Assembly (NCBI GenBank): GCA_024679065.1
Contig: JAGIQG010000040.1
Coordinates: 8,680,001-8,744,000 of the forward strand
DNA from: Sphyrna mokarran
Lineage: Eukaryota
Direction of reading: 5' to 3'
Length of the DNA: 64,000 bases
The notes under the pieces are model-generated. The model was given only the letters and a program-made list of their open reading frames with translations. It was not told the origin of the DNA and searched no databases. Of this stretch, positions 42,745 to 44,509 are shown piece after piece (the first letter of the stretch is position 1; every line of letters begins with the position of its first letter). A program made the translations under genes and the position numbers.

Positions 42745-42790
42745 ATGAAGTCGGCGATTTCTCTCAGTTTGTTGTTGACTTTCTTGTCCG
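42745..42790 (+). CDS. IGHV: IgM VH leader exon
   Basis: ATG...MKSAISLSLLLTFLS followed by a G|gtgagt donor; hydrophobic signal peptide. Confidence 0.93.
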
Positions 42791-42927: not shown

Positions 42928-43232
42928 GTGTCCACTCGGAGATTGTATTGACTCAGCCAGAGGCTGACACTGGATGTCCCGGAGGCTCCCTGAGACTGAC
43001 CTGTAAAACCAGCGGCTTCGATCTTGACAGCACTTACATGAACTGGATCCGACAGGTTCCCGAACAGGGGCTGGAGTGGCTGGTTGGCTACAAAAGTCCA
43101 TCCACCAACAGCTACACTCCAGCAATTCAGGATCGCTTTACTGCGTCCAAAGACACTTCAAACAACATTTTCTCTTTGGAAATGATGATGCTGAAGACCC
43201 AAGACAACGCCATCTATTACTGTGCAAAAGGC
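42928..43232 (+). CDS. IGHV: IgM VH exon (germline, unrearranged)
   Basis: tttacag|GT GTC CAC TCG; [29 protein letters not shown]...[14 protein letters not shown]...[15 protein letters not shown]...AIYYCAK. The conserved Cys, Trp and Cys are present. Confidence 0.96.
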
Positions 43233-43271
43233 CACAGCGAGAGGAACCAAGGGTGGACCCGAACAAGAACA
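43233..43271 (+). promoter_or_regulatory. VH 23-RSS
   Basis: CACAGCG + 23 nt + ACAAGAACA. Confidence 0.92.
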
Positions 43272-43632
43272 GCTCGAGAGGGAATTCAGCAACTTCCATC
43301 ATAATCTGAGGGTCAGTATCTGTTTTAAGTATAATAATAGCGCCAGTGATCAGAATCAAAACACACACCATTTCTGACAAACCCAACCTAGTGAAAATCA
43401 AACCTTAAACCAAGAAAACACACAGACATAATGGGCTGAGATTGTCACTCTGTTTATATTTACTGTTAACCGTTTCAGCAGTTAAACACCTGGATATAAT
43501 GCTCGTTTTAATATTTCTGACACTTAAAGGAGCTGTTTCCGAATTGAATTTTGTAAAGTGTTGCATAAATTATAAATTAATCAAAAAATTTATTGTAGTG
43601 AATATTGAGTGACAGTACTGAACAGAGAGTGC

Positions 43633-43694
43633 AGTTTTTATGCGAGTGTGTGTCACCGTGATATTGAGCACAGTGACATCCTCATACAAAAACC
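43633..43694 (+). other. IGHD: DH1 segment (coding ATATTGAG, 43661-43668) with 5' 12-RSS and abnormal 3' RSS
   Basis: AGTTTTTAT-12nt-CACCGTG | ATATTGAG | CACAGTG-10nt(ACATCCTCAT)-ACAAAAACC. Confidence 0.88.
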
Positions 43695-44008
43695 TTAGAA
43701 AAAGTGATTGCTCAATTTGGTAATCAGTCTCATAGCAGGATTTTCAAAGTAAACGAAGCTTCATTGAAATAACGTGTAGAAGCAATACCTGTTTGTGAAA
43801 AGGTATAACAATCTTAAAAACCGTAAAATCTGTGTTGAACGATACGCCAAATCTAAATAGAGGGATTAAATACATTCTGATACCGTTGGAAATATAATGA
43901 AAAGGCAAGGTACAATATCTTGCTCATTCGCTCTTAGAAGAGGCAGAATGAGATTTTTGAGAGAGCAGTGAACTTAATCTCTGTATTTTACAATTAGCAG
44001 TCAGGCAC

Positions 44009-44076
44009 AGTATTTGTCATGCTGTATCTCACTGTGGTAACTGGGTAGCACAACAGTTACTGTCAATACAAAAACC
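44009..44076 (+). other. IGHD: DH2 segment (coding GTAACTGGGTAG, 44037-44048) with 12/12 RSSs
   Basis: AGTATTTGT-12nt-CACTGTG | GTAACTGGGTAG | CACAACA-12nt-ACAAAAACC. Confidence 0.9.
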
Positions 44077-44422
44077 CTCAGCACTAATTGATCAAGTCTG
44101 GATCAGTGCTCTGATTTACAATCCAACATTATTTACAGCGCTGTATTATTTACAATAATACAATAAACAGCGCTATTGTCCAGCACTGAACAATAGCGAG
44201 AATCAAATGGAAAATTTATGATAACTATTCAATTATCATTTGCAGTTTTCAACAACATGTTCATGTGATTCTCTGCAAAAAGAAAATTGGAGTCATTTAT
44301 GCAGAGAGAACGGCATCCACAAATACAATAATAATTTCACGAATATTAATTGACTTTGATTTTCCTCTGGTTTGTGAATATTTAAAATAATGGTAGTTTT
44401 TCTGTCTTTGTTTTTCAGAGCC

Positions 44423-44461
44423 AGTTATTGTATGACCTAACTAAGGGAATGTGGCTCTGTG
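44423..44461 (+). promoter_or_regulatory. JH 23-RSS
   Basis: AGTTATTGT + 23 nt + CTCTGTG (reverse complement CACAGAG). Confidence 0.85.
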
Positions 44462-44509
44462 ACTACTTTGACTACTGGGGACAAGGGACCATGGTGACGG
44501 TCACTTCAG
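44462..44509 (+). CDS. IGHJ: JH segment
   Basis: YFDYWGQGTMVTVTS with the WGxG motif and a G|gtaag donor. Confidence 0.96.

Follow-up and report, generated by a model that had tools for sequence, protein, structure and literature searches.

A transcribed IgM minicluster of Sphyrna mokarran in which D1 was probably reduced to three nucleotides by a germline deletion, with likely single-D rearrangement

The window, by which we mean the whole 64,000-nt stretch of Sphyrna mokarran DNA analyzed here, contains an IgM minicluster on its forward strand, with one VH bearing a 3′ 23-RSS and one JH bearing a 23-RSS within ~2 kb, and with a D2 segment that is flanked by 12-RSS on both sides. The D1 of such a layout, which has a 12-RSS on one side and a 22/23-RSS on the other, was found only as a 3-nt remnant with no 22-nt signal. 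GT/AG splice sites and open frames were present throughout the leader, V, J, C-mu1 to C-mu4, the secretory tail, and the transmembrane (TM) exon. The features are as follows.

42745 to 42790, forward: leader exon with ATG and GT donor; spliced to V in an RNA contig by a GT..AG skip of 137 nt
42928 to 43232, forward: VH exon with open frame; closest paralogue 87%; matched by RNA contigs over 171 nt and over 94 nt, each with 0 differences
43233 to 43271, forward: V 3′ 23-RSS of the paralogue type
43633 to 43660, reverse: D1 5′ 12-RSS with two departures from the paralogue consensus
43654 to 43694, forward: second off-length pseudo-RSS, formed by the D1 5′ heptamer read on the forward strand, 25 nt from the nonamer at 43686
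43661 to 43663, forward: D1 coding remnant, its first 3 nt; start identical in 28 of 30 paralogues
43663 to 43664, forward: probable deletion point, with the remainder of D1 and the true 3′ heptamer gone
43664 to 43668, forward: probable old spacer positions 1-5, from alignment to paralogues
43669 to 43694, forward: off-length pseudo-RSS with a 10-nt spacer, probably composed of old spacer positions 6-12 (a 7-mer, now consensus), positions 13-22, and the D1 3′ nonamer
44009 to 44036, reverse: D2 5′ 12-RSS of the paralogue type
44037 to 44048, forward: D2 coding segment, 12 nt; 44041-44046 match 6 of 7 junction letters in an RNA contig
44049 to 44076, forward: D2 3′ 12-RSS of the paralogue type
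44423 to 44461, reverse: J 23-RSS, from the RSS scan
44462 to 44509, forward: JH segment with GT donor
54511 to 54810, ends approximate, forward: C-mu1 exon, stop-free
55699 to 55992, ends approximate, forward: C-mu2 exon, stop-free
56883 to 57179, ends approximate, forward: C-mu3 exon, stop-free
57605 to 57997, forward: C-mu4 exon with secretory tail, stop-free
61002 to 61142, start approximate, forward: transmembrane exon, stop-free

This organization resembles that of the elasmobranch VH-D1-D2-JH-Cmu miniclusters, as described for nurse shark Groups 1-5 in PMC2435157, in having one V, D2, and J within 2 kb at ~400-bp spacing, as well as 23/12-12/23 signals, a full C-mu, and joining within the cluster. 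In a protein search, the V was closest to IgM-type VH of horn shark, catshark, and bamboo shark, with 71-74% amino acid identity to those of horn shark and catshark; for an orthologous rearranged V, the same search (53-172 aa searched) gave eight germline-type matches at 55-74%, among which there was neither an orthologue nor a junction set. We ruled out an IgM pseudogene, given that the cluster has no stops, frameshifts, or lost splice sites and that a productive join exists. A germline-joined cluster was also ruled out, because V, D2, and J each retain their own RSS (compare the joined L032-L034, below).

At the D1 3′ site, the heptamer CACAGTG (43669-43675), a 10-nt spacer (43676-43685), and the nonamer ACAAAAACC (43686-43694) are all present, just as the sequence-only reading had stated when it described a perfect heptamer and nonamer 10 nt apart. 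An exact heptamer-N{8,26}-nonamer arrangement occurs nowhere else in the window and was found in 0 of 100 shuffled windows. Genome-wide, the exact 10-spacer pattern was found once, which is of the same order as in reversed controls (1 and 3); by itself, the pattern is at chance level in 2.8 Gb. The element is set apart from chance by its position, where an IgM cluster has its D1 3′ signal. A check of the spacer against a second assembly of DNA reads left it unchanged: a 684-nt contig from DNA run X1 (depth 18.7) matched 43269-43952 with 0 letter differences and 0 gaps. X1 is one run and possibly the assembly's own sample, and contigs lose rare variants, such that the result is silent on other alleles and animals. 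An assembly slip at the 10-nt spacer is ruled out as far as one X1 DNA contig can show.

The genome search with the V gave at least 40 matches, with 34 long ones (this gene included) and 6 short fragments among the matches listed. The 33 other long V matches listed comprised 30 unjoined clusters and 3 germline-joined clusters (L032, L033, and L034), the latter being left out of the tree. The window V is single-copy and at most 87% identical to any other V among the matches listed. Its cluster belongs to a clade with L002-L012 (11 members), where its tree neighbours are L004, L005, and L008 (FastTree support 0.98).

Alignment to the paralogous clusters, another check that the sequence-only reading had put forward, showed a D1 3′ spacer of 22 nt in all 30 unjoined paralogues (29 by scan and L012, in which the D1 3′ nonamer is degenerate, by alignment). 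Within this spacer, a 7-mer resembling a heptamer is preceded by 5 nt and followed by 10 nt. The 10 spacer nucleotides of the window are identical to paralogue spacer positions 13-22 in 22 of the 30. A nurse-shark primer designated "3′ of D1" in PMC2435157 is complementary to the same distal spacer, and because it complements these 10 nt they can be read as the standard distal half of the spacer. In 6 of the 30, all within the clade L002-L012, spacer positions 6-12 read CACAGCG, which differs from the consensus heptamer by a single letter; normal D1 spacers in this family thus conceal a latent heptamer. The internal 7-mer of L004, L005, and L008 does not start with CAC, which may be a derived state, because CACAGCG occurs across the remaining clade. 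In all, the 7-mer starts with CAC in seven of the 30 paralogues, and it sits 12 nt behind the true heptamer and 10 nt from the nonamer. This might be a hint that the 22-nt spacer once underwent a short duplication.

Only 8 nt separate the D1 5′ heptamer from the heptamer at 43669 in the window, and these, which had earlier been read as D1, were resolved into 3 nt of D1 and 5 nt of spacer. Specifically, the 5 nt before the heptamer showed 0-1 mismatch to spacer positions 1-5 in 13 of 30 paralogues and 0-2 in 28 of 30, but at least three mismatches to the D1 ends of all 30. Because these nucleotides fit spacer positions 1-5 and not D1 ends, the deletion most likely took the D1 core and the true heptamer, and the comparison with paralogues points most strongly to a single loss of ~16-19 nt. 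The heptamer at 43669 would then most likely be the spacer-internal 7-mer, one substitution from consensus, and not a signal converted by spacer loss; we infer that the 7-mer reached the consensus by one C-to-T step at a CpG. The lost length was 16-19 nt relative to most clade members, 26 nt relative to L012, and 17 nt in the alignment. Among fits with one gap, a single contiguous deletion after D1 nucleotide 3 came out best in 27 of 30 comparisons; it needed one substitution relative to L010 and two relative to each of L003 and L009. The ~12-nt spacer deletion and RSS class conversion that had been claimed from the window alone found no support, since the 5 nt before the heptamer align to spacer positions 1-5 and not to D1 ends.

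We weighed the model in which the true heptamer was kept and 12 nt of the spacer were lost, leaving a D1 of 8 nt whose signal had been converted to a weak 12 type, and regard it as highly improbable. The heptamer is exactly consensus, like that of the 11 clade paralogues, and the two 7-mers are 12 nt apart, so that slippage between them could occur. Yet this model requires a separate second deletion that would have taken D1 from the 12-22 nt of the paralogues to 8 nt, demands that 5 nt match spacer positions 1-5 by chance, and needs at least three substitutions relative to every paralogue. Across the 11 clade members, the single deletion called for fewer substitutions than the two-deletion model in six and the same number in two (L005 and L011), while the two-deletion model was cheaper by one (3 versus 4) in three (L004, L008, and L012). 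Irrespective of how the heptamer and nonamer came to lie 10 nt apart, a rival in which they work as a weak 12-RSS for shark RAG, with the cluster using either the D1 remnant or D2 (V-D1-J or V-D2-J) in the manner of a mammalian 12/12 D, appears very unlikely to us. The CAC heptamer and the consensus nonamer of a functional 12-RSS are present, both perfect, and the 7-mer shifted towards consensus in this cluster only; however, CpG transitions such as this one are common, six normal paralogues also contain the latent 10-nt element, and the sole junction of this V (below) uses D2. Moreover, the 10-nt spacer is outside 12 +/- 1, and RSS spacers are defined as 12 +/- 1 or 23 +/- 1 (PMC212687), a definition that speaks against such use. 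Spacer changes of two bases also abolish or severely cut activity: in mammalian assays, as summarised in PMC7753069, an 11-nt spacer retained 7.7% and a 13-nt spacer 11%, a 14-nt spacer was below detection, and a 23 minus 2 spacer had severely reduced activity. By analogy with these, the 10-nt element is probably close to inactive with RAG, bearing in mind that the mammalian lengths cited do not include 10 nt. Being 12-like, it would in any event be barred from joining to D2 through the 5′ 12-RSS of that segment. A literature search for assays of 10-nt spacers, with incomplete specialist coverage, found none. The second pseudo-RSS, which arises after the deletion, is also 2 nt off register with its 25-nt spacing.

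Transcripts were sought in run X2, which was taken to be RNA by a guess with which the spliced intron agrees, and which differs from X1 in sample and study; none of the runs listed is recorded as RNA. X2 contigs included 171 nt identical to the window V, and a leader that was spliced to V at GT..AG with 137 nt skipped. One 141-nt contig consisted of 94 nt of the window V (0 differences), seven further letters, and 40 nt of the window J (0 differences), while the best paralogue over the same 94 V nucleotides reached 92% (21 paralogues tested). Six of the seven letters, together with the next J letter, match D2 at 44041-44047 by eye; by hand arithmetic, 6-7 nt would match somewhere in a 12-nt D by chance with a probability of ~3e-3 to 4e-4. 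The remaining letter is consistent with a P nucleotide. Neither V nor J is trimmed in this junction, which is in frame and gives a CDR3 of 10 aa, and no letters match the D1 remnant, which was therefore used in 0 of 1 junctions. Thus, one V-J contig, which spans V and J only, and a spliced leader show that the minicluster is rearranged within the cluster and transcribed.

Four X2 junctions carried letters, alongside two further joints that were low in depth and lacked letters, the contigs retaining dominant paths only. The three other lettered junctions, assigned to paralogues by eye, had CDR3s of 11, 12, and 12 aa. Those of L020 and L011 each contained a D1 tract and a D2 tract, and the third, with an L010/L002-type J, contained D2 and at most 4 D1-like nucleotides, such that normal clusters too can give junctions without visible D1 (one of three paralogue junctions). 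Re-alignment of X2 at 90% likeness and 1% share produced no further junction of the window V among the pieces listed. Of the expectations set out before the analysis, a D1 3′ signal that departs from the 12/23 register and a predicted block to D1-D2 joining were supported, and the one expressed D2-only junction (n = 1) agrees with V-D2-J as the productive route. Shorter single-D CDR3s had also been predicted: the single-D outcome held in that junction, while the length agreed only weakly, at 10 aa versus 11, 12, and 12 (n = 1 versus 3). As a separate observation, three of the four dominant X2 junctions were readable without N nucleotides, by short overlaps or P nucleotides only. Junctions without N nucleotides are typical of early-life repertoires.

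Overall, we consider it probable that this is an intact, transcribed IgM minicluster in which D1 was cut to 3 nt by one germline deletion of ~16-19 nt that included the true 3′ heptamer, leaving a likely single-D (V-D2-J) cluster. With no 22/23-type signal between the D segments, D1-D2 joining would be lost. V (23) would bypass the remnant and be joined directly to D2 through the D2 5′ 12-RSS, and D2 (12) would pair with J (23), giving two junctions rather than three. Joining of V to the D1 remnant, whose 5′ 12-RSS is still plausible, would lead nowhere. Nurse-shark segments are joined in no set order, and in Group 2 rearrangement most often begins with V-to-D1 (PMC2435157). That first join would be a dead end in the window cluster, and some cells would accordingly be expected to stall after joining V to the remnant. 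The cost of D1 loss would be small because there are ~30 other clusters. The D1 5′ 12-RSS has changed at heptamer position 4 (a change found in 0 of 30 paralogues) and nonamer position 2 (2 of 30), substitutions that fit, but do not show, relaxed selection or mild selection against joining of V to the remnant.

With respect to the cause of the deletion, an ordinary small deletion is the simplest. It is favoured because in the commonest paralogue type the same 2 nt follow D1 nucleotide 3 and the heptamer, and because three more small deletions (3-7 nt) fall within the same 1.7 kb of the cluster. That RAG cut in a germ cell and the break was healed as an open-and-shut joint at the D1 3′ signal, with both ends trimmed, seems distinctly unlikely, although the lost stretch covers the RAG cut site and the germline-joined L032, L033, and L034 lie in the same genome. 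RAG signal ends are blunt and usually retained whole, and loss of a whole heptamer is untypical. Germ-cell rearrangement has been described in sharks (PMC2193156), but the entire heptamer is gone here, against the whole, blunt signal ends described in PMC6857471. Slippage could be accounted for by the 2 nt that, in the commonest paralogue type, are repeated at either end of the lost stretch, and the three neighbouring deletions likewise speak against a RAG scar. In addition, the overlap with an RSS was ascertained, since the RSS was the starting point. A bolder version is a very long shot: a healed germ-cell RAG cut would have erased D1 and founded a single-D IgM subclass, fixed and under selection, whose CDR3s are short and low in diversity and whose unmasked 10-nt signal shark RAG can use; if true, it would be a direct route from the shark two-D layout (12/22, 12/12) to the mammal-like one-D 12/12 layout. 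There is also an unlikely reading in which the deletion is a private or rare allele, or the cluster is heading for loss, with no bearing on the species repertoire, and the RNA junction came from a normal two-D allele. The sole DNA support may be the assembly's own sample, and X2 contigs do not cover 43282-44433, a gap that is uninformative on D1 and D2, so that X2 does not give the D1 genotype of the RNA animal. Furthermore, an undeleted allele could have supplied the junction letters, because the last five of them also end D1 in 12 of 30 paralogues. Against this, the cluster is ~17% diverged from its nearest paralogue, its extra D1 5′ RSS substitutions fit an older loss of D1 function, and every coding part is intact.

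As a minicluster with D1 probably lost by deletion, the locus differs from its closest known counterparts. All functional nurse-shark genes have two D segments according to PMC2435157, unlike the window cluster, which has a 3-nt D1 remnant without a usable 3′ signal and is still expressed. It is like the germline-joined VD-J and VDJ clusters of cartilaginous fish (PMC2193156, PMC5192425, and PMC4279169) in that a germline change leaves fewer variable junctions, in this case two instead of three. In contrast to them, it has no coding joint; V, D2, and J keep their signals, and RAG is still needed. The pseudo-RSS is comparable to cryptic or alternative RSS of mouse TRBJ, where a heptamer-like motif lies near a real signal (PMC6857471), and to the off-length spacers (21-22 nt) of human IGHJ, where spacer length tunes use (PMC7753069). 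Those alternatives keep 12- or near-23 spacing and are demonstrably used, whereas the window element is 2 nt off and putative. No description of an expressed single-D IgM cluster in sharks turned up among the literature listings searched, which, given their incomplete specialist coverage, is weak evidence for its absence from print. An oddity of the D signals in a monotypic cluster of horn shark was reportedly noted by Hinds-Frey in 1993. Since the diversity of shark IgM comes almost wholly from three junctions per cluster, a two-junction cluster would be a natural test case for whether V efficiently skips D1, for the cost of dead-end V-D1 joins where rearrangement is unordered, as in nurse shark, and for the tolerance of shark RAG for a 10-nt spacer. 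The cluster is one gene among ~34, and the effect on the repertoire of the animal would be small.

Finally, we noted features of other clusters in the genome. L032 (G000:C969) and L033 (G000:C994, ~9.418 Mb) have a germline-joined V-D with an open V frame, a D2-type 12-RSS left in place, and a separate J with a 23-RSS. L034 (G000:C994, ~7.405 Mb) is a germline-joined, in-frame VDJ with a divergent V, which we take to be IgM1gj-like by layout. In L009, D2 and J are absent from the examined stretch after D1, and homology stops just before D2. In L012, D1 is G-rich and 22 nt long, the signals flanking it are degenerate, and the V heptamer carries two changes; this is possibly a second cluster with a decaying D1. 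The D2 5′ signal of L021 appears shortened, with the nonamer close to the heptamer, and its J spacer is 22 nt. A separate 436-kb contig, G000:C1082, carries eight near-identical IgM clusters (L024-L031) with CACTGTG as the D1 3′ heptamer.
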